The notes below the pieces were generated by a model. That model was not told the DNA's origin, ran no database searches, and worked only from the letters and a program-made list of their open reading frames with translations. A stretch of 35,061 bases of DNA from a virus. The stretch spans positions 1-35,061 of IMG/VR virus record IMGVR_UViG_3300029188_000076; one strand, 5' to 3'. The translations under genes and the position numbers were made by a program. Position 1 is the first letter of the stretch. Every line of letters starts with the position of its first letter. Positions 1 through 29,068 of the stretch are shown piece after piece.

Positions 1-99
1 AGACAGCCAGTTTTACGATAATGTGAATGGCGCTTTAAAAGCAGGGCTGAAAATCGGCATTTATCATTATTCTTATGCATTATCTGACGATGTGGCAGG
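1..99. repeat. Terminal direct repeat copy 1 (identical to 34963..35061)
   Basis: agacagccagttttacgataatg...gacgatgtggcagg occurs exactly at both ends of the window. Both copies lie in the same endolysin reading frame. Confidence 0.95.
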
Positions 100-2373: not shown

Positions 2374-2396
2374 ACGGCAGACAAACGGCAAAAATT
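2374..2396 (+). repeat. CGGCAGA / CGGCAAAAATT motifs (second set of candidate arm-type sites)
   Basis: acggcagacaaacggcaaaaatt. The exact 12-mer copy abuts the integrase stop codon. Confidence 0.4.
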
Positions 2397-3466
2397 CATT
2401 TGTACATGGTTTCTATATATTGGTCTGCTTCTTTGCGAATATCATCTGTATAATGAATATAGGTAGCTGCTACGGTAGCGACATTATCCCCTAAAACAGC
2501 CGCAACAAGATTAATATCCTTTGATTTTGATAAAAGCATGGTGGCAAAGGTGTGTCGCAGGGTATGAACGGAAATTCCCTGTTTTAATTTACGCAGCTGC
2601 CTATTCATGAGAGCATGTGTACTTGGTGTTGTCGGGATAACGCGCCCGTCAATAGCTACAGGGGTATTCAGTTTCCACGTATTTAATCTGGCTGCCAATT
2701 TCGTATTCATATGTATGGTTCGGTTTCCGTTTCGTGATTTTACGGCTTTAAATCCCCGTTTTTCGGGAGATATCCAGTTATACTGTTTATCTATGGTGAT
2801 TGTTTGTCTGGTGAAATTGATACTGTTCCATGTCAATCCGGCTATTTCTCCATATCTCATGCCGGTATTAAGAGCAATGAAAGCGATCATGTAAAAAATG
2901 GATGTATCACTTAATGCGTCAAGCAGTTGCAATGATTCTTTTTCTGTCAATGCTTTTATTCTCCGGATGGTTTTATCTTTTGCTTGTGTGACACTGTCTG
3001 CCGGATTCGCTGTAATAATTTTATACGGATTGATGGCATAGTTAAAGATGGCACGAATCTGGGCGAAACGATTCTTTCTTGTGCCTTCGCTGAATCGTCC
3101 CATATCTTGATAGACATTGATCACATCTCCGGCGGTGATCTCCCGTATTTGTTTATTGCTCAGTGTAGGAATGCTGCGGAGCATAAAGAAATAATTCCTT
3201 TTGGTGCTATATTCTAAAGAGGATCCTTTATCCCGCAAGTATATATTCTGTGTGAAACTTTTAAAGGTAATATCCGCAAGTTCTGGATCTGCTCCGCAGG
3301 CGGCATCTTCTTTTGCGGCAGCTAATAATTTATCTTGGTATTGTTTGGCTTCCCGCAAGGTTTTAAATCCTTGTTTGGTTTTCTGCTTCCATTTACTGTT
3401 CACTTTGTATGACAGAATAAGGCAAATACTGCCGTTCTTCTCACGCGTCGAAAATGAATATTCCAT
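2396..3466 (-). CDS. int: Tyrosine recombinase / phage integrase with N-terminal arm-binding (AP2-like) domain
   Basis: 356 aa. Motifs are NTGMRYGEIAGLTW (Arg), HTLRHTFATMLL (H-x-x-R) and VAATYIHY (catalytic Tyr). The N-terminus has the pattern SWKQKTKQGFKTLREAKQY. Confidence 0.93.
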   Translation of the reverse strand: MEYSFSTREKNGSICLILSYKVNSKWKQKTKQGFKTLREAKQYQDKLLAAAKEDAACGADPELADITFKSFTQNIYLRDKGSSLEYSTKRNYFFMLRSIPTLSNKQIREITAGDVINVYQDMGRFSEGTRKNRFAQIRAIFNYAINPYKIITANPADSVTQAKDKTIRRIKALTEKESLQLLDALSDTSIFYMIAFIALNTGMRYGEIAGLTWNSINFTRQTITIDKQYNWISPEKRGFKAVKSRNGNRTIHMNTKLAARLNTWKLNTPVAIDGRVIPTTPSTHALMNRQLRKLKQGISVHTLRHTFATMLLSKSKDINLVAAVLGDNVATVAATYIHYTDDIRKEADQYIETMYK

Positions 3467-3743: not shown

Positions 3744-4610
3744 TTACTCTAATGGATTTTTACAATTTTCCTTTTCTGATTCTGCTATCAGTTGTTTCTT
3801 TTGTTCTCCTTCAATCTGTTTGATGCTTTTTTCAGGAGTCGGCAAATCTTCCGGCATTGTACCGCCCAATTCCTTAATCGTCTTGCGAACCTTTTGTCCT
3901 ACTTGGTAATGGGTGCGATTAGCGGCATCTTTTCCCTTTATATGTTCTCTTCGTAATTTATCATCTGTCTGTGTTGCCCGGAATAGATTTGCCGCCAATT
4001 CGGTACTTTCCATATGATCAAGGATTGCCTGTCCTTTTTTTAATCCTTTCTTTTTTGCAATATCTTGGGCGCTTAATCCCCCATAAAGCCCCATATATCC
4101 ATAATTCTGGAAAACTGCATATTCCAACCCGGACCTTACACCAGCCTGTTGTGCCGCCGCTGCCAAAGATTTATTATGGGCCTTTAATTCATTCCGTATG
4201 GCTAAACGCTTTTGATCCTCGGTGAGTAAATCATAATTATCTATAATTTCCTGTTGACGGGTTTTAATCGCAAAATAAGTCTGGGCAAGTGCAATGGCTT
4301 CTTTTCGCGGATCTCCATTCATTGCAATTAAATAACAGGCATATCGTGACAGCTTGTAATTATCAATATATTTTACGCCGCCGTTAGGCATGGGAGATGT
4401 TTTGCGGTCGTTCGCAAAATGTTCTGAAGGACTATTCCCACTTATTTCACAGGCTTTTTTAGCACGTTCTATCGTATCAGAAAATTGGCGCCATTGTTTA
4501 TATTCCAAGACAGGCATCAGTTCTCGTGCTGACCAATATTCCTGATTATATTCATTAATATGTTTTATGGACTCAAAAAGGTTTTCACTAATAGATGTAA
4601 AGCTTTCCAT
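3744..4610 (-). CDS. dinD: DNA-damage-inducible protein D (DinD) homologue
   Basis: Blocks match E. coli DinD as I remember it: LSRYACYLIAMNGDP, QTYFAIKTRQQE, RNELKAHNKSL..AAQQAGV, FQNYGYMGLYGGL, KKGLKKGQAILDHMESTELAANLFRATQT and ELGGTMPEDLPTPEKSIKQ. The start is taken at the ATG (4610) 7 nt after AAAGGAG rather than the upstream GTG at 4628. Confidence 0.88.
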   Translation of the reverse strand: MESFTSISENLFESIKHINEYNQEYWSARELMPVLEYKQWRQFSDTIERAKKACEISGNSPSEHFANDRKTSPMPNGGVKYIDNYKLSRYACYLIAMNGDPRKEAIALAQTYFAIKTRQQEIIDNYDLLTEDQKRLAIRNELKAHNKSLAAAAQQAGVRSGLEYAVFQNYGYMGLYGGLSAQDIAKKKGLKKGQAILDHMESTELAANLFRATQTDDKLRREHIKGKDAANRTHYQVGQKVRKTIKELGGTMPEDLPTPEKSIKQIEGEQKKQLIAESEKENCKNPLE

Positions 4611-4641
4611 AGATGTACTCCTTTTCACTTCTTAATAAAAA

Positions 4642-4780
4642 TTACAATTTCCCTCTGATTTCAACAACTTTTCCAAGAATAGTCACCGGAAGTTCCTTAC
4701 ATTCTTTTTTATTGTATGTCTTCGGTGTGTAAACGGACGGATTCCAGCCTATCAGAGTCAAGCCGGCATCTGATTTACTG
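4642..4780 (-). pseudogene. Remnant of the 3' end of an S24 repressor gene (paralogous to 6261..6399)
   Basis: Gapless alignment to the intact repressor 3' end gives 103/139 identical nt by my hand count. It translates to SKSDAGLTLIGWNPSVYTPKTYNKKECKELPVTILGKVVEIRGKL*, versus SKSENGLTLIGWNPAVYTPMTYTKKECQEFPVSILGKVVEIRRKL*. No N-terminal part is present. Confidence 0.85.
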
Positions 4781-4782: not shown

Positions 4783-4950
4783 TTACTTTTCTGATTCTTC
4801 TATTAGTTGTTTTTGAACTATTTTAGCAAGTTCGCGGCGTTCTTCTTGTGTCGGTGGCGGAACATTGGGATCTAAAGGATTACACATGAAGCCTGTCATA
4901 TTTTTCATGATGTAGTCCAGATCGTCAAGTCTTGGGTCATGTTTTGGCAT
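4783..4950 (-). CDS. Small ORF (55 aa) downstream of the nuclease gene
   Basis: The ATG is preceded by gaaagaagg. It encodes MPKHDPRLDDLDYIMKNMTGFMCNPLDPNVPPPTQEERRELAKIVQKQLIEESEK. It is below the ORF-track length cutoff and its TAA is in frame with the repressor remnant. Confidence 0.45.
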   Translation of the reverse strand: MPKHDPRLDDLDYIMKNMTGFMCNPLDPNVPPPTQEERRELAKIVQKQLIEESEK

Positions 4951-4979: not shown

Positions 4980-6242
4980 TTAGTTGAAATAATGCTTTTT
5001 AGCTCGTCTAAAACCTGCTACTTCTGCTTCTACTACAGTCAATGCATAAAATTCTTCAGGGCCACTAATTTTAGTGGCATCATATTGCTGATCAAACGGT
5101 AGATGATATATTTTTTCTTGTGTAGATTTATTTATATTGCATTTTATTATTGGGTATGGTAGAAATTTTTTATTTTCTATGAAGTGAACGCCCAATGTAT
5201 TTGCTACTCTTTTTGCGATACCAGATAATTGCGTTGATGTAATAAAAAGAGGTGTTAGAATTTTGCCAGTTAATAAAGAGTGAAATTCAGAAAAATCACC
5301 GCTCTCATTTATCTTTGATAAATAAAAATTTACTGTTGTTCCAAATAGTTGATTAATATGTTTTTCGTGAATAACCTTATGTGTATTCCAGTTTTTACAT
5401 TGAATTACAAGATAATTGTCATCTTTTTGGCAGATTAGATCAATGCCTTGATCTTTTAGCCCTTTTTGGATTCCGTTATATGTCACATCCCATCCGTCCA
5501 ATTCATAAGAATAACCTATATACCTTTCATAATCAGAGCCAATCTCTTCCCTGGTTCTCTTTCTACTCCACCATCGATCCAAAGCTAATTGATATTTCTC
5601 GGTATCGGATAAATTATTGTATTCTTTTGGCGTTAGCCAATTTTTTGCGTTATCGTCATGAGATTGATGGGATTGATTAAGAAGGATATTATCTATATCA
5701 GCAATAGAATCCTCTTCGTCTAATTCGCTTAAGTATGGAACCAATGATTCATATAGCCAGCATTTGTATTGATATTCTTTTGCTTGTTGTTTTAATATTT
5801 GCTTTTCTTTATTTATTATTCCAAGTATCTCGGCCGCTTTAAATGCGGGTCTTCGTTTTCGTATCAAATAGTCAACCAGTCGATTATCTTTTTCCAGTTT
5901 TATATCTGAAGATATTTTAGCTAAACTAGGAATATCTCTTATCTTGGAATTAAGCAACTTTTGAGTGAAGTTTATTTCTTTTTGCAGATTTTCGATTTTC
6001 TTTCTTTCCTTTATTATTAATTCATTTTGGTTAGATAAATTAGATTTAAGAAGGGACATTTTTTGTTTATTGCCCTTCATAACATTGTCTTCTTTATGCA
6101 GATTAAATAAAAGATATAAAATAACCCCAATTATAACAATATATGCCATGAAGTGTACAAGTTTGAGAGGAAGCAGATATGCAATTATACAACTCCATAC
6201 AGCTAAAGGAAATAATGTCCCGAAAAAATTATTCATGAACAT
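4980..6242 (-). CDS. Membrane-anchored coiled-coil protein with C-terminal Mrr-cat (PD-(D/E)xK) restriction-endonuclease-like domain
   Basis: Two N-terminal TM helices are followed by about 200 aa of K/E/Q/N heptads, then YERYIGYSYELDGWDV...GIDLICQKDDNYLVIQCKNW...INQLFGT and a C-terminal KIYHLPFDQQYD...EAEVAGFRRAKK motif. The gene starts 18 nt after the repressor stop (ATG 6242, or ATG 6236 with better RBS spacing) and is AT-rich. Confidence 0.75.
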   Translation of the reverse strand: MFMNNFFGTLFPLAVWSCIIAYLLPLKLVHFMAYIVIIGVILYLLFNLHKEDNVMKGNKQKMSLLKSNLSNQNELIIKERKKIENLQKEINFTQKLLNSKIRDIPSLAKISSDIKLEKDNRLVDYLIRKRRPAFKAAEILGIINKEKQILKQQAKEYQYKCWLYESLVPYLSELDEEDSIADIDNILLNQSHQSHDDNAKNWLTPKEYNNLSDTEKYQLALDRWWSRKRTREEIGSDYERYIGYSYELDGWDVTYNGIQKGLKDQGIDLICQKDDNYLVIQCKNWNTHKVIHEKHINQLFGTTVNFYLSKINESGDFSEFHSLLTGKILTPLFITSTQLSGIAKRVANTLGVHFIENKKFLPYPIIKCNINKSTQEKIYHLPFDQQYDATKISGPEEFYALTVVEAEVAGFRRAKKHYFN

Positions 6243-6260
6243 ACCTTCTATTTAACAAAA

Positions 6261-6893
6261 TCACAGTTTTCTTCTGATTTCAACCACTTTACCTAAAATG
6301 GAAACTGGAAATTCTTGGCATTCTTTTTTTGTATATGTCATTGGCGTATAAACAGCTGGATTCCATCCAATTAAAGTAAGACCGTTTTCTGATTTACTGA
6401 CTTGCTTGACTGTAGCATCATTTCCGTTGACCAAGACTACTGCTACATCACCGCTGTCTACATCTGCTTGACGGCGGACAATGACGACATCCCCATCAAG
6501 CATGTGGGGTTCCATGGATTTTCCGGCTATTTTCAGCGCAAAGTATTCGCCCATCTGGGTCATGTTTTGTGGAATTTCCTCCCAGTCTTCAATATCGGTA
6601 ATAGCTTCAATCGGAATCCCCGCTGCCACTCTGCCGAGGACAGGGATACGCACGCCTTTGGCAAGGGAAGATTGTTTATCAGTTTTATCTTCTATAAGAT
6701 CAGATTTTTCTATATGAAAAATAGTAGCAAGTTTTTCTACTGTATTCATTCTTGGATAACGGGTACCGCTTAGCCAGGAAGAAATGACGGATTTATTTAC
6801 TTGCATTCTGGTTGCTAAATCAACTTGATTCATTTGAAAGACATCCATATATCTCTTTAGATTCTTAATAAAAATTAGTCTATATTTATCCAT
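6261..6893 (-). CDS. LexA/CI-like prophage repressor (XRE HTH plus S24 self-cleaving peptidase)
   Basis: The N-terminal HTH is MNQVDLATRMQVNKSVISSWLSG. The candidate cleavage site is RVAAGIP (Ala-Gly), with catalytic Ser in AGKSMEP and Lys in ATVKQV. RBS is aaggagg. Confidence 0.92.
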   Translation of the reverse strand: MDKYRLIFIKNLKRYMDVFQMNQVDLATRMQVNKSVISSWLSGTRYPRMNTVEKLATIFHIEKSDLIEDKTDKQSSLAKGVRIPVLGRVAAGIPIEAITDIEDWEEIPQNMTQMGEYFALKIAGKSMEPHMLDGDVVIVRRQADVDSGDVAVVLVNGNDATVKQVSKSENGLTLIGWNPAVYTPMTYTKKECQEFPVSILGKVVEIRRKL

Positions 6894-6914: not shown

Positions 6915-6943
6915 ATTTTATTACAAAAAGTGAACCGAATCAA
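6915..6943 (-). promoter_or_regulatory. Candidate repressor-maintenance promoter (TTGATT-17-TAAAAT on the minus strand)
   Basis: The hexamers read on the minus strand at 6943-6938 and 6920-6915. The spacer contains AAGTGAACC, an operator half-site. The predicted start would leave a very short leader. Confidence 0.4.
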
Positions 6944-6959
6944 TACTTAAACAAAAAAT

Positions 6960-6998
6960 AGTTTACTTTGGGTATTGACAGTACACTTAAAGTAAACT
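6960..6998. promoter_or_regulatory. Operator inverted repeat AGTTTACTTT ... AAAGTAAACT overlapping the early promoter
   Basis: Perfect 10-bp arms at 6960-6969 and 6989-6998. The 14-mer CACTTAAAGTAAAC (6984-6997) fills the promoter spacer. Confidence 0.65.
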
Positions 6999-7003
6999 AT
7001 AAT
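6975..7003 (+). promoter_or_regulatory. Early lytic promoter, perfect consensus TTGACA-17 nt-TATAAT
   Basis: TTGACA is at 6975-6980 and TATAAT at 6998-7003 with a 17-nt spacer. It lies 36 nt upstream of the cro-like ATG. Confidence 0.8.
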
Positions 7004-7038
7004 ACAGATAACGAATTGAAGAAAGGAGGGGTGACAAG

Positions 7039-7239
7039 ATGAAGGTTTCTTTACCGGCGGCAAGGGTAAATGCTAAACTGACTCAATCAGATGTAGCGAA
7101 ACGATTAAGAAAGAACAAACAGACAATCGTAAATTGGGAAAATGGCAAAACTGAAATTGATAAAGCGAATTTTGAAGCTCTTTGTCGTTTATATAATTGC
7201 AAAATGGACGATATTTTTTTACCCTCAAGGTTCACTTAA
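7039..7239 (+). CDS. Cro-like XRE-family HTH regulator (66 aa)
   Basis: The HTH is LTQSDVAKRLRKNKQTIVNWENGK, with RBS gaaaggagggg. The gene is divergent from the repressor. Confidence 0.85.
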   Translation: MKVSLPAARVNAKLTQSDVAKRLRKNKQTIVNWENGKTEIDKANFEALCRLYNCKMDDIFLPSRFT

Positions 7240-7246
7240 AGTAAAC
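7229..7246. promoter_or_regulatory. Distal operator copy GGTTCACTTAAAGTAAAC at the cro stop codon
   Basis: CACTTAAAGTAAAC (7233-7246) is an exact copy of 6984-6997. GGTTCACTT (7229-7237) is the reverse complement of AAGTGAACC at 6928-6936. Confidence 0.55.
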
Positions 7247-7314
7247 AAAAATTAACAAAAACTAAGTTATAACAACCTACCACGGAATTTATAGAAAGAA
7301 GAAAGGAGCGAAAA

Positions 7315-7617
7315 ATGGAACGAAGAACGTATACTGTCGCGGAAACTGCCGAAATTCTCGGTGTATCAACGGATGTCGTCTACCGCATGAAAAATGACGG
7401 CATCCTTCCGGCGGTGAAAAATCTGTCTGCTATCCGTTTTCTAAAGCGGGATGTGCTGGCAATGGTCGGTGAGAAGCCTGACGATTTCCGCCCTTCCGCA
7501 TTGCGAAGACTACGGAATGAATTATCGTTTGAGAAGCAAGAAAACGAACGCCTACGAGGTATTATTCGACAGATTTGCGCCGCCGCCAATACGGCGGCGG
7601 TGCAGGAGGGATTATGA
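7315..7617 (+). CDS. Excisionase/MerR-type (HTH_17-like) DNA-binding protein
   Basis: YTVAETAEILGVSTDVVYRMKNDGILPAV is the winged-helix pattern of excisionase-family DNA-binding proteins. Confidence 0.6.
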   Translation: MERRTYTVAETAEILGVSTDVVYRMKNDGILPAVKNLSAIRFLKRDVLAMVGEKPDDFRPSALRRLRNELSFEKQENERLRGIIRQICAAANTAAVQEGL

Positions 7618-7913
7618 ATAAACCGTTGATTTTCACAGCGGCGCTAATGTCAGCCGTACTGGTAGCAGGTGCCGCGGTGGATGCGGAAAAAATCTGCAAC
7701 AGGCTTTTTCCGGAAACTCGAATTGTCGAGTACCGCCGGGAGGTAAGGGCAGGCGACACGCTCTGGGATATCTGTGGCGAAATAGCCACGGATAAAGAAG
7801 ACCTGCGAAAACTTGTCTGGCAGGCAAAGAAAGATAATAGGATAAAGGACGTCGGGAACCTGCAGCCGGGAACCTTAGTGATTGTAAGAGTTGAGGAGGC
7901 GCGGAATGGATGA
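7614..7913 (+). CDS. Signal-anchored LysM-domain protein
   Basis: The ATG overlaps the previous stop (ATGA) after aggaggg. The N-terminus is MNKPLIFTAALMSAVLVAGAAV, followed by the LysM pattern YRREVRAGDTLWDICGEIA...NLQPGTLVIV. Confidence 0.65.
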   Translation: MNKPLIFTAALMSAVLVAGAAVDAEKICNRLFPETRIVEYRREVRAGDTLWDICGEIATDKEDLRKLVWQAKKDNRIKDVGNLQPGTLVIVRVEEARNG

Positions 7914-8067
7914 CAGACAATTTACCGTAACACTGGCTAAAGAAGATTGGAACATAGTGCTGAAGATATTAGAAATATGTAAAGAAACATACCGGTATTT
8001 GTGGGGACACGAAATCGAATGCATTATCCGCGAAATAAAGTCAGATTTAGACAGTCAGGGTTTTTAA
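7906..8067 (+). CDS. Hypothetical small protein (53 aa)
   Basis: The ATG follows gaggagg and overlaps the upstream stop (ATGGATGA). The ORF is below the ORF-track cutoff and fills an otherwise empty 160 nt. Confidence 0.5.
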   Translation: MDDRQFTVTLAKEDWNIVLKILEICKETYRYLWGHEIECIIREIKSDLDSQGF

Positions 8068-8076
8068 AAGTAAAGG

Positions 8077-8283
8077 ATGCACGAAATGGATAACACAGAA
8101 AAGTTTGGACAGGTAGTCAAATATTTAATCCGCAGGTATAAGGAAGAGTCGAATATTTATGCGGAGTTGGGTAAAAAAGGCGACATGATAAACGCAGCTA
8201 AAGCGAGTGTACGTTTAGAAATTTTCTGGGAAATAATTCTTTTTATTAACAAGTTGGATATCAATGAGATGAAAAATCAATGA
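8077..8283 (+). CDS. Hypothetical small protein (65-68 aa)
   Basis: ORF with RBS aaagga. The start is ATG 8077 or ATG 8086. Confidence 0.5.
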   Translation: MHEMDNTEKFGQVVKYLIRRYKEESNIYAELGKKGDMINAAKASVRLEIFWEIILFINKLDINEMKNQ

Positions 8284-8318
8284 AAAAGCCGACTGATAAC
8301 TGCAATTATCAATCGGCA

Positions 8319-8355
8319 GGCGGAAAATGTGAGTGATATTTCCGCCTCTATATTA
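8319..8355 (+). terminator. Possible terminator/attenuator hairpin in the early operon
   Basis: Stem GGCGGAAA(8319-8326)/TTTCCGCC(8339-8346) is followed by TCTATATTAT. It is preceded by an imperfect palindrome at 8288-8317. Confidence 0.35.
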
Positions 8356-8378
8356 TCAGAAAATGGAGGATTAGACAA

Positions 8379-8579
8379 ATGGACAAAGAATTACAAAAAG
8401 TAACAAATGAGTTATGTGATTTTTTAAGACCGGTGAACATAAAGCTTGAAAAATGGATAGTAGAAAACAAAAAAAGGCTTATTGCATCTGACGGAAAACT
8501 GACAGAGCTCGGGCTATTAGTCGGAAATGCTTATGCGGTTTATATCCTTATTGATGATCTGCTGAACAACGCTGATTGA
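8379..8579 (+). CDS. Hypothetical small protein (66 aa)
   Basis: ORF with RBS ggagga. Confidence 0.5.
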   Translation: MDKELQKVTNELCDFLRPVNIKLEKWIVENKKRLIASDGKLTELGLLVGNAYAVYILIDDLLNNAD

Positions 8580-8596
8580 TTAATTAAGGTAAAAGC

Positions 8597-8791
8597 ATGG
8601 AACGTGAAGTATTTAATACCTTGAAAGTAGGAGCAAAAATCAGTGAGCCAAGAGGGCGTGAAGCTCCGCCAATCAATGGGATATTGGCGGATAAGGTCGG
8701 AGAAACGGCCTTGATGAGAACGGGGTATACTCCCGGAGGGAAACCAATTCTGCGATGGGCACATTATACAAAATTAAAAAAGGAGATATAG
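8597..8791 (+). CDS. Hypothetical small protein (64 aa)
   Basis: ORF in the operon context. No recognisable motif. Confidence 0.4.
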   Translation: MEREVFNTLKVGAKISEPRGREAPPINGILADKVGETALMRTGYTPGGKPILRWAHYTKLKKEI

Positions 8792-8793
8792 CA

Positions 8794-9762
8794 ATGGATA
8801 CAAAAGAACAAAAAACAATAGATACGAAAGCTGAAATAACAGAGATTCAGATTGTTGAACCGCAGATTCTTTCCGCGGATCTCAACGTAACGACTAATTT
8901 TGAAGATGTAAAGAAGAATTTGCAGATAATCACAGAAAAATATAAAGGATTAGTCGTTACTGATCAAAACCAAAAGGACATGGAAAAAACTCTCCGCGAA
9001 GTGGTGTCTCTCCGGACGAGTATTCAGAAATTTGAAGTCAACGGGAAACGACAGCTCCGCCGGCCGATGGACCAGTTCACGGATGCCTGCAAGGAACTTT
9101 TAAAAATTGTGAATGAAGCGGAACGACCACTGCGGGAACAGCTTGACGCTTATGAGGCGAGACGGCAGGAAGGCGTAACAAAAGTCATTCTGCACAAGTA
9201 TGAAGAAATGGCATTTGACGCGGGAATACGTGAAGAGTTCCGCTCTTGCGAGATTCTGTCCAAGTGGATGAATAAAACAGCAAAATTAAAGGACACCTAT
9301 GAAGACATTGCTCGCTTAGTATCTGAACAGGTGACTGCGCAAAAACAGCATGATGATCTCAAAGAACTCCGCAATTCCCGCCGTGAGCTGGCACTTCTAC
9401 AGATAGAAAAAGCCAATAGAGACTATGCTTTGGCGACGCCCATTACGGAATATTTCCTGACAGACGAGCTGCTGGACACATCAGCCGAAATCATTAAAAA
9501 CACAATCAATGAGGAAGCGCTGCGCCGCCATGAGATGGATGAGAATGCAAGGCAGGTATCCTCGCCCGCTGTTTCAGCTCCACCGCCGGCGGCTAAGCCT
9601 CCTGTAGTACCGATACCGCAGGTTGAACCCGGTGTGTCATGGCCTAAGGTAATGACGGTCACAATCACACTTAACAGTTCATTTGACTATCAGGCAGTAG
9701 AAAACGCATTAAGCAGTCTTCCGCCGCAGATTCGATGGAATTCCGATATAAAGGAGATATAA
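8794..9762 (+). CDS. DUF1351-like recombination-module protein
   Basis: The start is taken at the ATG after aaaaaggag. The long helical N-terminal half (TNFEDVKKNL..KYKGLVVTDQN..DMEKTLREVVSLR) and the position upstream of a Sak4-type ATPase fit the DUF1351 family, recalled from memory. There is a Pro/Ala-rich linker near the C-terminus. Confidence 0.45.
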   Translation: MDTKEQKTIDTKAEITEIQIVEPQILSADLNVTTNFEDVKKNLQIITEKYKGLVVTDQNQKDMEKTLREVVSLRTSIQKFEVNGKRQLRRPMDQFTDACKELLKIVNEAERPLREQLDAYEARRQEGVTKVILHKYEEMAFDAGIREEFRSCEILSKWMNKTAKLKDTYEDIARLVSEQVTAQKQHDDLKELRNSRRELALLQIEKANRDYALATPITEYFLTDELLDTSAEIIKNTINEEALRRHEMDENARQVSSPAVSAPPPAAKPPVVPIPQVEPGVSWPKVMTVTITLNSSFDYQAVENALSSLPPQIRWNSDIKEI

Positions 9763-9764
9763 CC

Positions 9765-10787
9765 ATGGCGATTGAATTTAAAAAAGCACATCGATCCAAA
9801 GCCAAGCTCAGGCTGGCTATTGCGGGTCCGTCAGGAGCGGGGAAAACATATTCGGCACTTCTGATTGCAAGCGGAATCGTACCGCTGGAAAAAGTGGCGG
9901 TAATTGACACCGAATCGGGGTCTGCAGATTTGTATGCAGACTTGGGCGGATATTCTACATTGACGATCAACCCGCCGTATAGCCCTCAGAAATATATTGA
10001 AGCCATTCATGCGGCGGAAGCGGCAGGATTTGAGCTTGTTATCATCGATAGCCTGTCACACGCATGGAGTGGAGAAGGCGGCCTGCTTGACCAGCAAGGA
10101 AAGGCAGCGGACAGTAAATACCATGGGAATAGCTGGGCGGCATGGCGTGAAATTACGCCGCTTCACAACCAGTTGGTAGAGACCATGCTGCATACGCCAC
10201 TCCACGTTATTGTCACCATGCGAAGCAAGACGGAATATATACAGACCGATGTAAATGGAAGGAAACAGATCCAGAAGGTCGGCATGGCACCTATTCAGCG
10301 TGACGGGATTGAGTACGAATTTACCACTGTCTTTGATTTATCGCAGAACCATACAGCTACGGTCAGTAAGGACAGGACAAAGCTGTTCGATGGGCAGTAT
10401 TTTACACCTACGGCTGATTGCGGCAAGGCCCTCCTACAGTGGCTCAACGCAGGAAACGTTCCGCAGGTGTCTTCTGCCCCTCAAAAAGCAATACCCGTAA
10501 AAGCCGAAACACCATCCGTAAATGGGAAACAGAAAACACACAGAGAACGGCTGGAACGTATCTGGAGACAGCTTGGCTGGGATAAAACGCAGCTGCTTGA
10601 TGCGTATATGACATCCCGTATGCAGTCTATTTACGGCGAGAGCGCTACGGTGGACAAGGCGCAGGAAGCAGACTGGGAATCAGCGGATAGAGAAATTACA
10701 AATTATTTAATTGAACAGAAACAAAATAAAATCGCCGAGGTTCTTCCGGGAGAACCGGATTTAGAAAAAGATGAAATTCCATTCTAA
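9765..10787 (+). CDS. Sak4-like RecA-fold ATPase (AAA_24 family) single-strand annealing protein
   Basis: Walker A is AIAGPSGAGKTYSAL, followed by VIDTESGS and Walker B VIIDSLSHAW. The gene is adjacent to SSB. The C-terminus ends DLEKDEIPF. Confidence 0.75.
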   Translation: MAIEFKKAHRSKAKLRLAIAGPSGAGKTYSALLIASGIVPLEKVAVIDTESGSADLYADLGGYSTLTINPPYSPQKYIEAIHAAEAAGFELVIIDSLSHAWSGEGGLLDQQGKAADSKYHGNSWAAWREITPLHNQLVETMLHTPLHVIVTMRSKTEYIQTDVNGRKQIQKVGMAPIQRDGIEYEFTTVFDLSQNHTATVSKDRTKLFDGQYFTPTADCGKALLQWLNAGNVPQVSSAPQKAIPVKAETPSVNGKQKTHRERLERIWRQLGWDKTQLLDAYMTSRMQSIYGESATVDKAQEADWESADREITNYLIEQKQNKIAEVLPGEPDLEKDEIPF

Positions 10788-10802
10788 GAAAGGAGAAAAA
10801 TT

Positions 10803-11291
10803 ATGATTACAGCAACACTTTACGGCAGGCTTGCCAGAGATCCAGAACGAATGCAGCCGTCTAACGGAGGAGAATCGTATGTACGATTCTCCATGGCGAT
10901 AGAAACGGGTCGTAAAGATCAGGATGGAAATCGTATTGCCCAATTTATCAACATATCTGTTTTCGGAAAACAGGGTGATGTTATTCAGCAATATTTTCAA
11001 AAAGGGAATCGTATTGTCTGCCATGTGCGAAACATTGAAGCAAGAGCGTACGAGAACCAGTCAGGACAGCCGCGAGCCGCCCTGCAGGCGGTTTTGACGG
11101 GGATTGAATTTGTAGAAACAAGAGCGGACCAAGAGAAACAGGGAGAGAACGGCGGTCCTTTTGCGCGATTTGGTACACCGCAGACGCAGGCAGCTCCTGC
11201 TTACGGTACACCTATGGGATCCACTCCCTCCCCACAAGCGCTTCCGGGCATGCAGACAGAGGGGACAATTCCTGCCCCGTGGGATAGGTAA
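10803..11291 (+). CDS. ssb: Single-stranded DNA-binding protein
   Basis: The OB-fold pattern is ITATLYGRLARDPE...VRFSMAIE...FINISVFGKQGDV...KGNRIVCHV, with a Gly/Pro/Gln-rich tail. The tail ends TIPAPWDR rather than the canonical DDDIPF. Confidence 0.85.
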   Translation: MITATLYGRLARDPERMQPSNGGESYVRFSMAIETGRKDQDGNRIAQFINISVFGKQGDVIQQYFQKGNRIVCHVRNIEARAYENQSGQPRAALQAVLTGIEFVETRADQEKQGENGGPFARFGTPQTQAAPAYGTPMGSTPSPQALPGMQTEGTIPAPWDR

Positions 11292-11306
11292 AGGGGGTAT
11301 CAATTA

Positions 11307-11702
11307 ATGGAAGAAATTAAGAGAAATCCTCTTCCGGGAACGGAGTGTGGGATGGCCTATCTGGCTCATCCCTACACTTTCACATCTCATTCTCCCGGTC
11401 AGTATACTTCTCCGCAGCTGAACCGTGAGGATACTGGAAAAATTACGTGGCGGCTCATGAGACGTTACACGAATTTGACAATTATTTCCCCGCTTCATGC
11501 GTATTCATTTTTAGACAGCAAGAATTTGACTGAAACGGAAATTCTTTACTATGATTTCAGGCTTCTTTCCCGGTGCGATATGCTGATTCTTTCCGGCGAT
11601 TGGCGGCATAGCCTCGGCTGTATGTCCGAATACGGCTATTCAAAAGCAAAAGGAATCCGGATCTATGAGTATGTAGACGGAACTCTGTATCCGCTGGAAT
11701 GA
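11307..11702 (+). CDS. DUF1937/nucleoside 2-deoxyribosyltransferase-like protein
   Basis: AYLAHPY, ISPLH and LLSRCDMLILSGDWRHSLGCMSEYGYSKAKGIRI fit the pattern of that family, recalled from memory. Confidence 0.4.
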   Translation: MEEIKRNPLPGTECGMAYLAHPYTFTSHSPGQYTSPQLNREDTGKITWRLMRRYTNLTIISPLHAYSFLDSKNLTETEILYYDFRLLSRCDMLILSGDWRHSLGCMSEYGYSKAKGIRIYEYVDGTLYPLE

Positions 11703-11739
11703 GTAAATTTCGTTGTAAACCTTTAAAGGGGGTGATAAC

Positions 11740-12567
11740 GTGGGGCGCCAGCTTAAACAAGGGTTGGACTATCTCACACTGGATGTTGATTTCTTTGAAA
11801 GCGTAAAGGTCCGGAAGATAAAAAAGGACTGTGGCAATCAATCAATACCGATACTGATCGCGTTGCTCTGTAATATTTTTCGAGAAGAGGGGTATTACGT
11901 GAAATACGATAACGATCTGGCATTCCTCATAGCTGAGCAATTCGGCGTGAGCGAGGGTGCAGTAGAGGATACCGTTCGAAAGGCGGTTTCAGTTGAGTTT
12001 TTTGACAGCCACATGTTTCAGAATTACGGAATTCTCACTTCACACGGTATTCAGCAGCGCTACTTTGATGCAGTAGCCCGTCTGAAAAGAAAGTCGGTGA
12101 AGGTCACGGGGGATTTTCTATGCAAAAATATTTCCCCTGGAATAAATACCGATTTCCTCCGTGATAAATCGAATAACCTCTGGAATAAATCCGACAAGGT
12201 AGAGGAAGAGGTAGAGGAAGAGGTAGAGGAAGAGGTAGAGGACAAAGCGTCTTCTCCGAAAACTGAAATCACCAAAGCATTTTCTTCCTCTTCTCCCGGA
12301 CTGGAGAAATCAATCAAAAAGTGGATGGACATGAGGAAACAGAGGAAAGCTTCTGTATCACCGACGGCTCTTAAAAAGAACCTGACACAACTCAAGAAGT
12401 TATCAAACGGGAATATAGAGGACGCCACTCTCATTGTAGAGCAGTCAATTGAAAATCAATGGCTCGGGTTCTGGCCGCTCAAAAGACCGAAGCAGAAAAA
12501 AGCGGGAGGAAGCTATGGACATATCGCCTCTCCGAAAGAATGGAAAGGCATCAAAGACGGGTGGTGA
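11740..12567 (+). CDS. Replisome organiser / DUF4373 (Lin1244-type) N-terminal domain replication protein
   Basis: GTG start after aaaggggg. The pattern is LDYLTLDVDFFESVKVRKIKK...GILTSHGIQQRYF. It lies upstream of a DnaC-like loader and contains an internal 12-bp repeat array. Confidence 0.6.
   Translation: MGRQLKQGLDYLTLDVDFFESVKVRKIKKDCGNQSIPILIALLCNIFREEGYYVKYDNDLAFLIAEQFGVSEGAVEDTVRKAVSVEFFDSHMFQNYGILTSHGIQQRYFDAVARLKRKSVKVTGDFLCKNISPGINTDFLRDKSNNLWNKSDKVEEEVEEEVEEEVEDKASSPKTEITKAFSSSSPGLEKSIKKWMDMRKQRKASVSPTALKKNLTQLKKLSNGNIEDATLIVEQSIENQWLGFWPLKRPKQKKAGGSYGHIASPKEWKGIKDGW
12199..12243 (+). repeat. Tandem 12-bp repeat (GTAGAGGAAGAG x 3.75), iteron-like, in frame as (VEEE)n
   Basis: Three exact units (12199-12234) plus a partial fourth (GTAGAGGAC). 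Confidence 0.9.
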
Positions 12568-12569
12568 CA

Positions 12570-13271
12570 ATGGAACGAATCGGACAGGATATGGATGCTC
12601 TCCAGAAAAAAATGGAGACATTTATCAAAAACAATGGACGCTTAAATGAGCAAAATCCAAAAACGGAAGCGGAAGAGGCGGCAGAAGAAAGAAAAAAATG
12701 GACGAATAGGCTGTATAAAGCCGGAATAGGCAGGCGGTACCATGCTTGCACGTTTCAGAACATTGAAAGAAAAGGATTACCGGATTCCAAGCTGCTGAAA
12801 AGCCATTATGCCATCGCGAAAGATTACGCTAAGAATTTCAAGGTACACAAGGCAAAAGGGCAGGGGCTTATCTTCGCCGGACCGGTAGGACGTATGAAGA
12901 CCACGATGGCGGTCGCCATAGCGCAGGAGATCATGAAAGATTATAACCGGGCGTATTTCATCACGATGCCGGAATTGATGGACAGCCTTCTGCAGAATAA
13001 TCTTTCACAAGAGGTGAGAACACGCACAAAAGAAACGGACTTACTGATTCTTGATGACATGGGAGCGGAGTATCAAAATGACTGGGTACTGAACGCGGTC
13101 GATGCAATTATATCGAAGAGATACAACGAACTCCTGCCGGTAATTATTACGACGAATAAGACACCGGAAGAGATGAATCAGAGGTATATGGCACGGATTT
13201 TTGACAGGTTGAAGCATGCGAACAGGTTGCTTATAGAAGCAGGAGAAAGCCTGCGAAAAAATGAGGTTTGA
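12570..13271 (+). CDS. DnaC/IstB-like helicase-loader ATPase
   Basis: P-loop is GPVGRMKTT, Walker B is LLILDDMGAE, and a VIITTN sensor motif is present. The start is taken at ATG 12570, just after the upstream stop. Confidence 0.75.
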   Translation: MERIGQDMDALQKKMETFIKNNGRLNEQNPKTEAEEAAEERKKWTNRLYKAGIGRRYHACTFQNIERKGLPDSKLLKSHYAIAKDYAKNFKVHKAKGQGLIFAGPVGRMKTTMAVAIAQEIMKDYNRAYFITMPELMDSLLQNNLSQEVRTRTKETDLLILDDMGAEYQNDWVLNAVDAIISKRYNELLPVIITTNKTPEEMNQRYMARIFDRLKHANRLLIEAGESLRKNEV

Positions 13272-13289
13272 GAAAGGAGAGATTGATAC

Positions 13290-13505
13290 ATGGGAAATAA
13301 TCGATTTATGGTTGTGTCAGAAGAAAAGGATATCATCGCAATGAATCCGTCCTACGTTGAGCAGAAAGGGAAAAATCTTATCATCTACATGCCCGGGACG
13401 TACAAACAGCTTGAGCTGGAATACGAAACGGAAGAAGAGGCGAGAAGCGTTTTTGACGATATAAGGAAGGCTTATGAATCCGGGAGAATAGACGTTTATA
13501 TCTGA
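13290..13505 (+). CDS. Hypothetical protein (71 aa)
   Basis: ORF with RBS aaaggagag. Confidence 0.5.
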   Translation: MGNNRFMVVSEEKDIIAMNPSYVEQKGKNLIIYMPGTYKQLELEYETEEEARSVFDDIRKAYESGRIDVYI

Positions 13506-13522
13506 TCTAAGGGGTGATAGCA

Positions 13523-13660
13523 ATGAATACGGTGATAGATGTAGCAAGCGTTGTAGTGTTTATTGTCTTGATTATGTACACGGCTATCAAGCTTGACAAA
13601 GCGGCAAGAAAGCTGCGCGATGAGGAAGAGCGGATTTACGGAGGGAGGCACGAAAAATGA
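13523..13660 (+). CDS. Small single-TM peptide (45 aa)
   Basis: ATG after aaggggtga. It encodes VIDVASVVVFIVLIMYTAI followed by a charged tail. The ORF is below the ORF-track cutoff. Confidence 0.4.
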   Translation: MNTVIDVASVVVFIVLIMYTAIKLDKAARKLRDEEERIYGGRHEK

Positions 13661-13711
13661 ACAACCTGATCACCATCGTTGCCACTTTTGGCAACGAGAG
13701 AGGAGCATGAA

Positions 13712-13852
13712 GTGAAACTTTACAGTGACAGAGGGGATAAATATTATCTTTTCGGACAGTTTGAACTATATCTGATGCTCATACAGTGCGTTATTATCGG
13801 AATATTAGCAGCGCTGACATACGTTTTGATTCGATTAGGCGGTGGAGTATGA
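13712..13852 (+). CDS. Small single-TM peptide (46 aa, GTG start)
   Basis: GTG after gagaggag. It encodes LYLMLIQCVIIGILAALTYVLI. Its stop overlaps the rusA ATG (GTATGA). Confidence 0.3.
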   Translation: MKLYSDRGDKYYLFGQFELYLMLIQCVIIGILAALTYVLIRLGGGV

Positions 13853-14211
13853 AGCTCATAATACCCGGGCGCCTTCCCTGCATGAATGACTTGATTGCTG
13901 CCAACCGGCTGAATAAGTACGCCGGAGCGGGTGTGAAGAAGAAAACGCAGAGGCAGATTATTCTGATATTGCAGCCGCAGGTAAAAGAGCGGAAGTTTAC
14001 CGAAAAAGTGAATATCCGTATCGAATATTACGAAAAGGATATGCGCCGGGATGAAGATAATGTGATGAGCGCGGCAAAGTTTATACTTGATGCGCTGCAG
14101 GATATAGGGCTTATCCAAAACGACAGCAGGAAATATGTGCACTTGACGCAGGAAGTATTTACCGATCGGGATAATCCGAGAATTGAGATAGAGGTGGAGA
14201 GAGCCGACTAA
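13849..14211 (+). CDS. rusA: RusA-family Holliday junction resolvase
   Basis: MKLIIPGRLPCMNDL...RRDEDNVMSAAKFILDALQDIGLIQNDS matches the RusA catalytic Asp cluster pattern. Confidence 0.8.
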   Translation: MKLIIPGRLPCMNDLIAANRLNKYAGAGVKKKTQRQIILILQPQVKERKFTEKVNIRIEYYEKDMRRDEDNVMSAAKFILDALQDIGLIQNDSRKYVHLTQEVFTDRDNPRIEIEVERAD

Positions 14212-14400
14212 ATGAGAATGACATTCATAGACTTCTTTGCCGGCATTGGCGGGTTTCATAGCGGATTTGAAAAAGCAGGATGTAATTCCGTTGATGAAAC
14301 AAAGATTGATGAAAGCTGGACGAAAGAGGATATTGAAGAAGCCGCAAGCGACATATTTTTTAATCAATGCAATTATTCTTATGAGGTTGTAGACGAATAG
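14212..14400 (+). pseudogene. Truncated remnant of a C5-cytosine DNA methyltransferase (motif I only)
   Basis: TFIDFFAGIGGFHSGFEKAG is the AdoMet-binding motif I (F-x-G-x-G) of Dcm-type enzymes. The ORF is only 62 aa and lacks the PC catalytic motif IV and all later motifs. Confidence 0.6.
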
Positions 14401-14416
14401 AGGATGGTAGATTGAA

Positions 14417-14617
14417 ATGGATAAAATTGGCATAGTAGATGGGGAATTGTATTTTTATATCCATCGTGATGGAAGGATAAGCAAGGCGAGATATTTTAGA
14501 GATCTGACGTTTGATTGTCTTAACCGTTGTGCTGGGAATTGTTTTAGAACGGAGGAATCAGCAAGAATGCATAGAGAGGAAATACTGAAAATGCTAAAAG
14601 GAGAAGATGATGAATAA
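14417..14617 (+). CDS. Hypothetical protein (66 aa)
   Basis: ORF in the operon context. Confidence 0.45.
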   Translation: MDKIGIVDGELYFYIHRDGRISKARYFRDLTFDCLNRCAGNCFRTEESARMHREEILKMLKGEDDE

Positions 14618-15149
14618 CGGAATGCGACCAGGCATTTTTCATAATCCAGATCCGACTTATGAAAAAACGAAGACAAATTTGAATCGTGAATCTAAGCGGG
14701 TACGCTGTGAAGTTGAAGCGTTTTTTGAAGAAATTCGGCGCTGCAGGAAGCATATTGATTCTCTTAATCAGTACCGCCTGCAGTACGAAATGGATCTGTT
14801 CTCACTCAAAGGCTGTAGATATGATAAGGAGCCGGTAGACGGCGGCGTGTCTTCCGATTTGTCAGATATCGTCATTGCTTTTGAGCAGAAGATGGCACAA
14901 GCAGAAGAACTGCGGATAAAAGAGCTCAACAGGTATGGAGATATGATTACAAGAGGGTTCAGGCTGCTTGCTTTGCTTTCCGACCCAGAGCAAAAGTCGA
15001 TTATGATTGACCGGTATTTTATGAATATACTTTGGGAGAAAATATCGCTGGATCATCATTTTGACAGGAGTACATGTATGAGAATGAGAGACCGGGCGAT
15101 TCAAGAAATTTCACGAAAAACACAAGTTGCGACTAAATGCGACTTTTAA
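14607..15149 (+). CDS. Sigma-70 region-4-like late transcription regulator (ArpU/RinA/DUF1492-like)
   Basis: The C-terminal LSDPEQKSIMIDRYFMNILWEKISLDHHFDRSTCMRMRDRAIQEI resembles an ECF-sigma region 4 HTH. The gene sits immediately upstream of terS. Confidence 0.5.
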   Translation: MMNNGMRPGIFHNPDPTYEKTKTNLNRESKRVRCEVEAFFEEIRRCRKHIDSLNQYRLQYEMDLFSLKGCRYDKEPVDGGVSSDLSDIVIAFEQKMAQAEELRIKELNRYGDMITRGFRLLALLSDPEQKSIMIDRYFMNILWEKISLDHHFDRSTCMRMRDRAIQEISRKTQVATKCDF

Positions 15150-15152
15150 ATG

Positions 15153-15161
15153 TGGTATTAT
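15153..15161 (+). promoter_or_regulatory. Possible extended -10 element TGgTATTAT
   Basis: It lies 4 nt after the regulator stop, with no convincing -35. The first six bases (TGGTAT) match the promoter at 1435. Confidence 0.25.
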
Positions 15162-15201
15162 GATAGTGTAAAAGTTCAGGAATTCCTCCCTGAAATAAGA
15201 A

Positions 15202-15240
15202 AGCACGTACTTCGGTCATGGGTGCGTGCTTTTTGTTTGT
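15202..15240 (+). terminator. Strong rho-independent terminator immediately upstream of terS
   Basis: A 9-bp stem AGCACGTAC/GTGCGTGCT (one G-U pair, valid on the + strand) is followed by TTTTGTTTGT. Only about 23 nt remain before the terS start. Confidence 0.7.
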
Positions 15241-15263
15241 TTATCTAAAAGGTGGTGATTGCT

Positions 15264-15725
15264 GTGGGCGCAAAAGGCAAGTATGCAAAGTGGCTTCTTC
15301 CGGATAATCTTTTGCGCTTGCAGGCATGGGCGCGAGACGGATTAAGTAATGAGCAGATTGCACATAATATCGGAATTAATCAAGATACATTGTACACATG
15401 GATTAAGAAGTACCCCGAATTTTCCGAGGCTTTATCGCGCGGAAAAGAAGTTGTGGATATTGAAGTAGAGAATGCGCTTTTAAAAAGAGCCAAAGGATAT
15501 GACTATATAGAGACTACATCGGAGCTGATTGCGGATAAAAACGCAAGAAATAAAGCAGTGATGAAAGTAACTAAGCGTGTGACGCGGCATGTACCGCCGG
15601 ACGTAAAAGCTATTGTATTCTGGCTGACGAACCGAAAACCGGAATGGCGCGACAAGCAGGAGAAAGAATTATCTGGCAACATCGGGATTAATTTGGTGGT
15701 AGATGATGACATTGCAGACGATTAA
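15264..15725 (+). CDS. terS: Terminase small subunit (HTH type)
   Basis: LSNEQIAHNIGINQDTLYTWIKKYPEFSEAL...ENALLKRAKGY. The start is GTG 15264 after aaaggtggtga (ORF open from 15252). The 3' end overlaps terL. Confidence 0.75.
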   Translation: MGAKGKYAKWLLPDNLLRLQAWARDGLSNEQIAHNIGINQDTLYTWIKKYPEFSEALSRGKEVVDIEVENALLKRAKGYDYIETTSELIADKNARNKAVMKVTKRVTRHVPPDVKAIVFWLTNRKPEWRDKQEKELSGNIGINLVVDDDIADD

Positions 15726-17064: not shown

Positions 17065-17255
17065 TGAGCGACAGAGCGCTTAGAGATTACGCTTATAGAG
17101 TGCTCAAATCAGAGTACGGTGAACATATGGAGAACGGGATTTTAATTCCGGCAAAGAAAAGCGATGAAGAGCTGGCGGCGTTCGCAGCGCAGATGCCAGA
17201 ATGGCAGCTTAGGCAGATGTATGGAATGATGTTTGAAGGAGAACTTGTCGAATGA
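17064..17255 (+). CDS. Hypothetical protein (63 aa)
   Basis: The ATG overlaps the terL stop (TAATG). It lies between terL and the portal gene. Confidence 0.5.
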   Translation: MSDRALRDYAYRVLKSEYGEHMENGILIPAKKSDEELAAFAAQMPEWQLRQMYGMMFEGELVE

Positions 17256-19213: not shown

Positions 19214-19337
19214 TGCCTTGATATATCGTCCTAAGCAACGACGTTAAAAGGCTTTTTTCTTTCGTCCGAAAAGAGACGGTAAACTACAAAAAATCATTCG
19301 ACCGCCGACGTCGTTAAACCGGCAGAAGGAGATAATT

Positions 19338-20246: not shown

Positions 20247-20272
20247 TTATTTTACAAAAAGGAGAATGAAAT

Positions 20273-21241: not shown

Positions 21242-21259
21242 TTTCAATGGAGATGAGGT

Positions 21260-21290
21260 GAGGGCTTTTTACAGCCCTCTTTCCTTTTCT
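21260..21290 (+). terminator. Rho-independent terminator/attenuator after the capsid gene
   Basis: Stem GAGGGCT(21260-21266)/AGCCCTC(21273-21279) is followed by TTTCCTTTTCT. Confidence 0.7.
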
Positions 21291-21302
21291 TAAGGAGTAA
21301 CT

Positions 21303-22293: not shown

Positions 22294-22294
22294 T

Positions 22295-24880: not shown

Positions 24881-24890
24881 GGATAGCGAA

Positions 24891-25724: not shown

Positions 25725-25734
25725 AGGACGCAAT

Positions 25735-26136: not shown

Positions 26137-26148
26137 AAAGGAGATTGC

Positions 26149-27786: not shown

Positions 27787-27788
27787 TC

Positions 27789-29057: not shown

Positions 29058-29068
29058 AGAGGTAAAAT

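Follow-up and report, generated by a model that had tools for sequence, protein, structure and literature searches.

What does a predicted nuclease gene do when it is placed directly behind the repressor of a temperate phage? The question is raised by the IMG/VR virus record IMGVR_UViG_3300029188_000076, whose whole stretch of 35,061 nucleotides (hereafter, the window) contains on its minus strand an open reading frame (ORF) at 4980..6242, called as a protein of 420 aa. An original prediction, made from the sequence alone, had described the product as a membrane-tethered Mrr-type nuclease and a candidate exclusion or abortive-infection effector. On the basis of the sequence comparisons reported here, we consider it highly probable that the gene encodes a membrane-anchored Mrr-type nuclease, with intact catalytic residues and so probably active, which is carried as mobile cargo behind the phage repressor. 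A role in defence or exclusion on behalf of the lysogen appears likely.

Domain architecture and family of the predicted nuclease

The nuclease core, of the PD-(D/E)xK type, was assigned to residues 231-355 (5178..5552, minus strand) by Pfam searches and by fold. The protein matched Mrr_cat with 30.2 bits (gathering threshold 21; 5.2e-7) and Mrr_cat_2 with 29 bits (threshold 22; 1.1e-6). Conserved residues and motifs were judged on an alignment of 52 homologues, of which 50 matched Mrr_cat and all 52 matched Mrr_cat_2. The D-x12-Q-x-K signature that had been read from the sequence was found as D268-x12-Q281-x-K283, and these residues, together with E239, were invariant across the homologues (minus-strand codons: E239, 5526-5528; D268, 5439-5441; Q281, 5400-5402; K283, 5394-5396). 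An AlphaFold2 model built from a 52-sequence alignment, with a mean predicted local distance difference test score (pLDDT) of 87.5, gave the core an alpha-beta-beta-beta-alpha-beta topology (helices, H, and strands, E: H231-248, E252-254, E269-273, E276-283, H293-311, E329-335). When the PDB was searched with Foldseek, solely PD-(D/E)xK proteins were retrieved, namely AF1548 (1y88, E 1.4e-4), Cdn1, MspJI, EndoMS and Hjc, and additionally the modification-dependent enzyme AspBHI; among viral models, the search retrieved 'restriction endonuclease' proteins from uncultured siphoviruses. When the protein or the family profile was used as query against PDB sequences, only coiled-coil noise and a weak match to AF1548 were returned. 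Neither degenerate catalytic residues nor an absent PD-(D/E)xK fold, both named beforehand as evidence against the assignment, was seen. Since E239, D268, Q281 and K283 are invariant, the enzyme is predicted to be active.

A C-terminal motif, described in the original prediction as a small accessory module of bacterial nucleases, probably corresponds to a 'sunset' domain at residues 356-420 (4983..5177, minus strand). The region runs as IKCNI...KIYHLPFDQQYD...EAEVAGFRRAKK, with the sunset motif KIYHLPFDQQYD...GFRRA at the C-terminus of the protein. The window protein scored 25.3 bits against the NCBIfam sunset model NF051437 (E=1.1e-5), just below the cut-off of 27, and 47 of the 52 family members matched the domain at E<=1e-3, the best at 5.2e-9. 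PHROG 21287 also matched the C-terminus of the nuclease (2.2e-7). This region, modelled by AlphaFold as a small beta-beta-beta-alpha fold, is conserved more strongly than any other part of the protein (74% consensus identity), and no description of the sunset domain was found in the literature.

At the N-terminus, a hydrophobic anchor occupies residues 6-50 (6093..6227, minus strand), as either one long transmembrane (TM) helix or two TM helices in a hairpin. Two hydrophobic helices had been proposed at this position. Kyte-Doolittle hydropathy indeed gave two adjoining stretches, one covering residues 6-26 and the other 27-50, with a K-rich segment behind them; the AlphaFold model, however, drew residues 10-97, comprising both anchor and stalk, as a single unbroken helix with pLDDT above 90, so two TM helices in the window protein can be regarded as plausible. 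Since positive residues follow the anchor, a location of the nuclease on the cytoplasmic side would fit the positive-inside rule. Residues 51-97 (5952..6092, minus strand) form a variable helical stalk of ~50 aa, which is of low complexity, rich in K, E, N and Q, and poorly conserved (27%). The heptad-like coiled-coil tether of ~200 aa that had been described for this part of the protein was retained for the stalk but not for residues 98-230 (5553..5951, minus strand), a conserved helical mid-domain with pre-nuclease helices and both invariant and near-invariant columns. Its fixed motifs are DIPxLAK, RPAxxAAE, YExLxPxL and WLTxxEYxxLSxxEKYQLALDR, its modelled helices are H101-128, H134-167 and H198-226, and no Pfam family matched it in the window protein or the 52 homologues. 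In the longer homologues P0013, P0018 and P0037, a helical module of ~70 aa (DIPxLAK ... RPAxxAAE ... YExLxPxL) is tandemly duplicated, suggesting that this module acts as a repeatable stalk unit.

Whether tethering belongs to the function can be judged from the anchor across the family, and above all from its natural splitting from, or fusion to, the nuclease, which is the best evidence obtained on this point. Among the 120 homologues listed, one N-terminal hydrophobic segment was found in 97, two in 4 and none in 19. At 114 of the 161 family loci, the nuclease gene encodes an N-terminal hydrophobic helix of its own. At a further 26, the nuclease is anchorless and starts with the coiled coil, and a small upstream gene (86-170 aa) supplies the anchor; the small proteins have an N-terminal TM helix and a coiled coil, and at most of these loci -4 to +7 nt separate the two genes. 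Ten of these 26 upstream proteins cluster as proteins with a C4 zinc ribbon of the topoisomerase type (Pfam Zn_ribbon_Top1 in 7 of those scanned). This zinc-ribbon version of the split (L091, L096, L121, L125, L137, L139, L142, L150, L152 and L161) occurs in Candidate Phyla Radiation (CPR) and other bacteria, the small gene being separated from that of the nuclease by -4 to +6 nt in most. The remaining 21 'anchorless' loci mostly had weak TM segments, miscalled starts, or broken or truncated genes. A predicted anchor, own or coupled, was present at 140 of the 161 loci. The anchor sequence itself is unconserved, though almost every family member has an anchor. Lengths of the N-terminal region run from 68 to 306 aa, at 19-27% consensus, and the C-terminal module has a fixed length of 317-344 aa with 51-74% consensus. 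Because anchor and nuclease are naturally split or fused across the family, these comparisons suggest that selection has kept the anchoring rather than the sequence, and that tethering is part of the function.

The family is widespread. Relatives sharing 40-60% identity along most of the protein numbered more than 4,451 in a word-indexed search. When 1.84 billion representatives were searched exhaustively with the family profile, 1,106 clusters passed E<=1e-30, the family being counted as clusters at 50% identity. With strict peptide patterns, members were found in 439 contigs of GTDB species-representative genomes and on 141 IMG/VR viral contigs; the best 80 of the 439 GTDB contigs belong to Bacteroidota, Bacillota, Pseudomonadota, Verrucomicrobiota, Chloroflexota, Acidobacteriota, Patescibacteria (CPR) and two archaea. 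Plasmid occurrence was limited to four Hymenobacter records, in which the family members sit amid metal-resistance cargo. On a Hymenobacter aerilatus plasmid (L172), the family member at 5604..6851 has FRG-domain and DUF4942 proteins nearby. In Hymenobacter (L172; L085/L086/L088/L090), a conserved hypothetical protein of 415-617 aa precedes the nuclease, and may be a lineage-specific partner. Literature searches on membrane-bound Mrr defence and on Mrr_cat in prophages yielded no description of the present family.

Where relatives carry a name, it is only 'restriction endonuclease'. A membrane-tethered classical restriction enzyme, Type IV-like or Type II-like, with its target set by DNA chemistry and not by location, would agree with this public annotation, with a catalytic domain that is that of Mrr, and with the retrieval of the modification-dependent MspJI and AspBHI by Foldseek. 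We regard this explanation as improbable. Neither SRA nor any other modification-reader domain was detected in the protein; Pfam and NCBIfam gave no match to an Mrr_N-type modification-dependent DNA-binding domain, the N-terminus consisting of the TM anchor and helices, and no conserved methyltransferase neighbour was found among the loci examined. The explanation would also leave unaccounted for both the near-universal membrane anchor and the split TM/zinc-ribbon partner.

Placement of the gene behind the phage repressor

The nuclease ORF is intact, and is supported as a real gene by homologues at 40-60% identity over 80-95% of its length; its exact 418-aa product was found on 8 public contigs. 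An AGAAGG ribosome-binding site lies 1 nt from the ATG at 6242 and 7 nt from the ATG at 6236 (minus strand). Because of this spacing and of the 418-aa form in public gene calls, the true start is probably ATG 6236, which would give a protein of 418 aa and a gap of 24 nt between repressor and nuclease. For the ORF as called, the spacer (6243..6260, minus strand) is 18 nt long and holds the ribosome-binding site; a scan found no terminator-like site in it, and none on the minus strand before ~3675. The coordinates and the terminator scan thus agree with the earlier description of a gene 18 nt behind the repressor stop, on the same strand and with no terminator between them. The gene had also been described as more AT-rich than its flanks, and this was confirmed. 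Its guanine-plus-cytosine (GC) content is 30.9%, with 24% at third codon positions (GC3), as compared with 39-40% in the repressor, a 55-aa ORF (orf55), a dinD-like gene and the integrase, 43.5% in the whole window and 45% in 7000..35061. From its sequence, the nuclease gene looks horizontally acquired.

The repressor, nuclease ORF, orf55, DinD-like gene and tyrosine integrase form a leftward unit, all five on the minus strand. The repressor (6261..6893), a cI/LexA-type protein with a helix-turn-helix (HTH) domain of the HTH_3 family and a Peptidase_S24 domain, matched Pfam Peptidase_S24 at 1.2e-26, HTH_3 at 1.2e-6 and PHROG 4 (transcriptional repressor). It lies upstream of the nuclease gene, and we infer that the two are co-transcribed in one unit. 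A consensus scan placed divergent promoter-like sites of a genetic switch at 6915..7003 (both strands), one for the repressor operon at 6943..6915 (minus strand) and one for a cro-like gene at 7039, located at 6975..7003 (plus strand) with a perfect TTGACA-17-TATAAT; these sites are pattern matches only. On the other side of the nuclease gene, orf55 (4783..4950, minus strand) has a good ribosome-binding site. Beyond it, at 4642..4779 (minus strand), lies a non-coding remnant of the 3' end of a second S24-repressor gene (SKSDAGLTLIGWNPSVYTPKTYNKKECKELPVTILGKVVEIRGKL*), which is ~78% identical in DNA to 6261..6400 and forms with it a direct repeat bracketing the nuclease and orf55 cassette. The remnant is, as read from this repeat, a recombination scar at the boundary of the acquired cassette, and the scar suggests that the repressor once directly adjoined the dinD-like gene. 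The 3' end of orf55 is cut by a recombination junction at ~4798, and its last few codons differ between the window and L001. A homologue of orf55 (62 aa) was found only in L001 and L002, the closest, 98%-identical relatives; the suggestion that it might be an obligatory partner of the nuclease was rejected, as the ORF is confined to these relatives and otherwise unconserved.

Farther along the unit, the DinD-like/Bro-N gene (3744..4628, minus strand; NCBIfam DinD, 1.4e-116) also matched the PADLOC candidate system PDC-S13 (6.7e-114), and is a second possible defence cargo. The tyrosine integrase (2396..3466, minus strand; Pfam Phage_integrase, 3.3e-17) ends the lysogeny module.

Exclusion genes are known from this position in other phages. 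In the lambda cI-rexA-rexB arrangement, the rexAB exclusion genes are placed behind the repressor, and Sie2009 and Ltp lie between the repressor and integrase of lactococcal/streptococcal phages; Sie and Ltp act at DNA injection. The nuclease gene likewise lies on the strand of the repressor, without a terminator, in a slot that varies between related phages. This exclusion-type position, pointed out in the original prediction, was found to recur: clustering of 82 viral loci at 80% identity left 36 lineages, and in 17 of these the gene directly upstream on the same strand encodes a regulator of the HTH_3 or HTH/S24 type; in 8, an integrase was within three genes downstream. The 98%-identical homologue keeps the order repressor, nuclease, small ORF. 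Phages whose integrase falls in the 90%-identity cluster of the window hold other genes between repressor and integrase, and in L001 (9523..10694) a different set lies downstream of the nuclease, including a PemK-like protein of 284 aa. The differing cargo among related phages suggests that the slot between repressor and integrase is a variable cargo site, or hotspot. The nuclease gene appears to be dispensable cargo, since related phages lack it. In the sister phages L164-L171 (~4591..5734 in L164), the slot holds proteins of 200 aa and 93 aa without a Pfam match and a 73-aa Ada_Zn_binding-like protein. The last of these was compared with the C-terminal domain of the nuclease by BLASTP; no similarity was found, and a relationship was rejected.

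Toxin-antitoxin pairs are commonly arranged as an HTH protein with the toxin behind it, some of the upstream HTH proteins weakly match MqsA, and the family also occurs in CPR bacteria, in archaea and amid metal-resistance cargo on Hymenobacter plasmids. These observations could be accommodated by a role outside immunity, in the life cycle of the phage itself or in DNA transactions generally, such as membrane DNA processing, the blocking of transformation or conjugation, or a stabilising toxin paired with the upstream HTH protein as antitoxin. We give little weight to such a role. The upstream HTH proteins of the phages are true S24 switch repressors with divergent cro-like genes, an HTH neighbour was found in only 4 of 71 chromosomal lineages, and the nuclease is dispensable cargo. 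On the first two of these grounds, we rejected as the main explanation a toxin-antitoxin pair in which the upstream HTH protein takes part.

The ends of the window, 1..99 and 34963..35061, are identical. This exact terminal overlap of 99 nt indicates that the window is a complete, circularly assembled genome of a temperate phage, ~34.96 kb in size, and does not derive from part of an integrated prophage. The circular junction of the ends lies within a GH25-like lysin ORF. The structural module is closed by a 1,717-aa ORF (29069..34222, plus strand); Phage_lysozyme2 and LPD38 domains were found in a protein of equal length in the sister contig L166, so that the ORF may encode a large polyvalent protein of the tail or for injection. 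Between the portal protein of the window and P22-like portals, identity is just ~25%, and a search of the window for tRNA genes gave none.

Possible role of the nuclease in the lysogen

The mode of a defence or exclusion role may be considered beside that of SNIPE (PD-lambda-1), which combines a TM segment, DUF4041 and a GIY-YIG nuclease (PMC13190303; 2022, PMC9519451). SNIPE (Nature 2026; PMC13190303) is a nuclease that tells foreign from host DNA by sitting at the membrane where genomes enter. It is constitutively located at the membrane, and deletion of the TM segment makes it toxic (PMC13190303). It cuts lambda DNA during injection and spares induced prophage DNA, acting as a direct, non-abortive defence (PMC13190303). 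Among SNIPE homologues, one TM segment is present in 59% and two in 7%, with a variable N-terminus and a conserved nuclease (PMC13190303); DUF4041 is moderately conserved, and is thought to diversify against tape-measure proteins (PMC13190303).

Our best overall explanation, which we hold at somewhat less than even confidence, is that the present protein is a lysogen-expressed, membrane-localised nuclease that defends the lysogen. The N-terminal anchor and helical stalk would hold the Mrr_cat DNA nuclease at the cytoplasmic face of the membrane, and the mid-domain and sunset domain would complete a fixed effector module of ~320 aa. Readthrough from the repressor promoter would make the nuclease constitutive in lysogens; other phages or incoming DNA would be its target, and the lysogen would be protected. 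Tethering away from the nucleoid may render an always-on nuclease tolerable, and may place it at the point of entry of foreign DNA, which would be cut on arrival, following the logic of SNIPE with unrelated domains. This specific mode, that is, cutting at the site of DNA entry with self-protection by sequestration, is argued by analogy and is put forward tentatively.

Several points weigh against this explanation. The protein has no homology to SNIPE domains, and its likeness to SNIPE is architectural only as far as the analogy goes. The mid-domain is highly conserved across phyla, unlike DUF4041, and this speaks against a simple copy of the SNIPE model: its binding partner is more probably a generic one (DNA, the membrane or the mid-domain itself) than a rapidly evolving phage protein. 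Phage specificity, if any, would be better placed in the variable N-terminal region. The predicted topology derives from hydropathy and the positive-inside rule. The family was absent from 50,697 deposited phage genomes when these were searched with the protein by tblastn; megablast of the nuclease region against deposited phage genomes likewise gave no match. The chromosomal neighbours of the family are heterogeneous, comprising recombinases, metal-resistance cargo, housekeeping genes and few defence genes. Homologues were surveyed for a place next to S24 repressors or in defence islands; an HTH_3 or HTH/S24 regulator adjoined them in 17 of the 36 viral lineages, but enrichment in defence islands was not apparent among the chromosomal neighbours, where only scattered single defence matches occurred (a DpnI-like enzyme, AbiE, AbiQ, SoFic, PD-Lambda-3_B and DUF4238).

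The same architecture might also serve abortive infection, as the original prediction had envisaged. The tethered nuclease would then be inactive until the membrane or envelope is disturbed, upon which it would degrade host and phage DNA and kill the lysogen. Several triggered systems, among them Avs/NLR-like systems, Lamassu and Epona, use Mrr_cat domains as effectors, autoinhibition or sensing might be the task of the strongly conserved mid-domain, and lambda rexAB occupies the same position behind the repressor. On the other hand, Pfam and NCBIfam scans revealed no recognisable sensor, NTPase or signalling domain in the nuclease, and SNIPE, the sole characterised protein of such a layout, acts directly; nothing in the analysis shows the abortive mode or to the 'membrane sensing' that had been proposed with it, and the direct and abortive modes would look alike in sequence. 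We consider abortive infection rather unlikely, though a serious alternative, and prefer the direct defence of the lysogen by a membrane-localised nuclease.

It is conceivable, by analogy and with considerable reservation, that the present proteins constitute a widespread, unnamed defence family that arrived independently at the principle of SNIPE, in which self and non-self are told apart by location and DNA is cut as it enters. A second, unrelated family with the SNIPE layout, ranging from Bacteroidota to CPR bacteria and archaea, would mean a general convergent solution and not a single case; entry-site nucleases would then form a general convergent class of immunity, for which the place behind the repressor of a temperate phage would be a common one. 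The family would also contribute a defence gene overlooked by present detectors, PADLOC being silent and the annotation only 'restriction endonuclease', and, for phage biology, it would add a nuclease to the exclusion genes of the repressor-integrase slot. The split TM/zinc-ribbon variants and the conserved mid-domain and sunset domain would provide handles on how the host chromosome is spared.

Comparison with known systems

The original prediction had recognised the architecture in no named defence system. We found that the family is indeed unnamed, although SNIPE and Epona, both validated defences, are precedents for its layout. PADLOC, including its PD-Lambda-1 model, gave no system-level match in the nuclease or the 52 homologues; its marginal matches, to ZorD, ZorA and coiled-coil models at E about 1e-3, were confined to 4 of the 52 members. 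As in Zorya (ZorAB with the Mrr-like nuclease ZorD) and TM-bearing Shedu, a membrane location would be combined with a PD-(D/E)xK nuclease against invading DNA. However, Zorya is a multi-gene, motor-based system, whereas the present family consists of a single nuclease gene or a split pair, and neither DUF4263 nor a PADLOC match to Shedu (SduA, DUF4263) was found in the window protein and the 52 homologues.

The rexAB, Sie2009 and Ltp genes share with the nuclease gene the slot next to the lysogeny repressor, the logic of expression in the lysogen and membrane-associated products; their proteins are, however, unrelated to the present family, and none is a nuclease. E. coli Mrr and other Mrr_cat (PF04471) enzymes have the same catalytic domain family and its D...(Q/E)xK signature, but the present family differs in being membrane-anchored, as predicted, in having the mid-domain and sunset domain, and in having no N-terminal modification-reading DNA-binding domain. 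Closer in composition is Epona, an anti-phage cassette of the sedentary chromosomal integron of V. cholerae, in which Mrr_cat is fused to a 2-TM domain (bioRxiv 10.1101/2024.07.02.601686). Compared by its published description only, Epona resembles the present family as a single-protein defence made of Mrr_cat and a transmembrane domain; it differs in being a fusion to a holin-like 2-TM part, encoded by a short integron cassette that hardly occurs outside V. cholerae, and its description mentions no stalk, mid-domain or sunset domain.

Homology to SNIPE was assessed with hhalign, for which the E. coli SNIPE gene was recovered via a published primer and a profile of 35 SNIPE sequences was built. 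It was rejected, the probabilities being 0.4% against the E. coli sequence and 2.6% against the 35-sequence profile, and DUF4041 (PF13250), T5orf172, MUG113 and GIY-YIG had no match in the window protein or the 52 homologues. The E. coli SNIPE gene, at 1776..3278 of L163 (E. coli 118UI chromosome), lies inside a lambdoid prophage, flanked by ren/replication gene P and a P22AR C-terminal domain protein, a location indicating that SNIPE too is phage-borne cargo.

In layout, the resemblance to SNIPE extends to a single gene with an N-terminal TM anchor, an elongated helical region, a middle domain and a C-terminal, presumably cytoplasmic nuclease, to a variable front and conserved back, to a broad distribution, and to the prophage-borne state of the E. 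coli copy. The differences lie in the nuclease, which is GIY-YIG/T5orf172 in SNIPE and a PD-(D/E)xK Mrr_cat domain in the present family, in the added sunset domain and a far more conserved middle domain in place of DUF4041, and in the anchor, which some Mrr-type members carry on a separate TM/zinc-ribbon protein. Taken together, these comparisons lead us to the verdict that the family is not categorically new, and that, widespread and so far unnamed, it probably joins the membrane-anchored nuclease defences, themselves recognised only recently, as a new variant.

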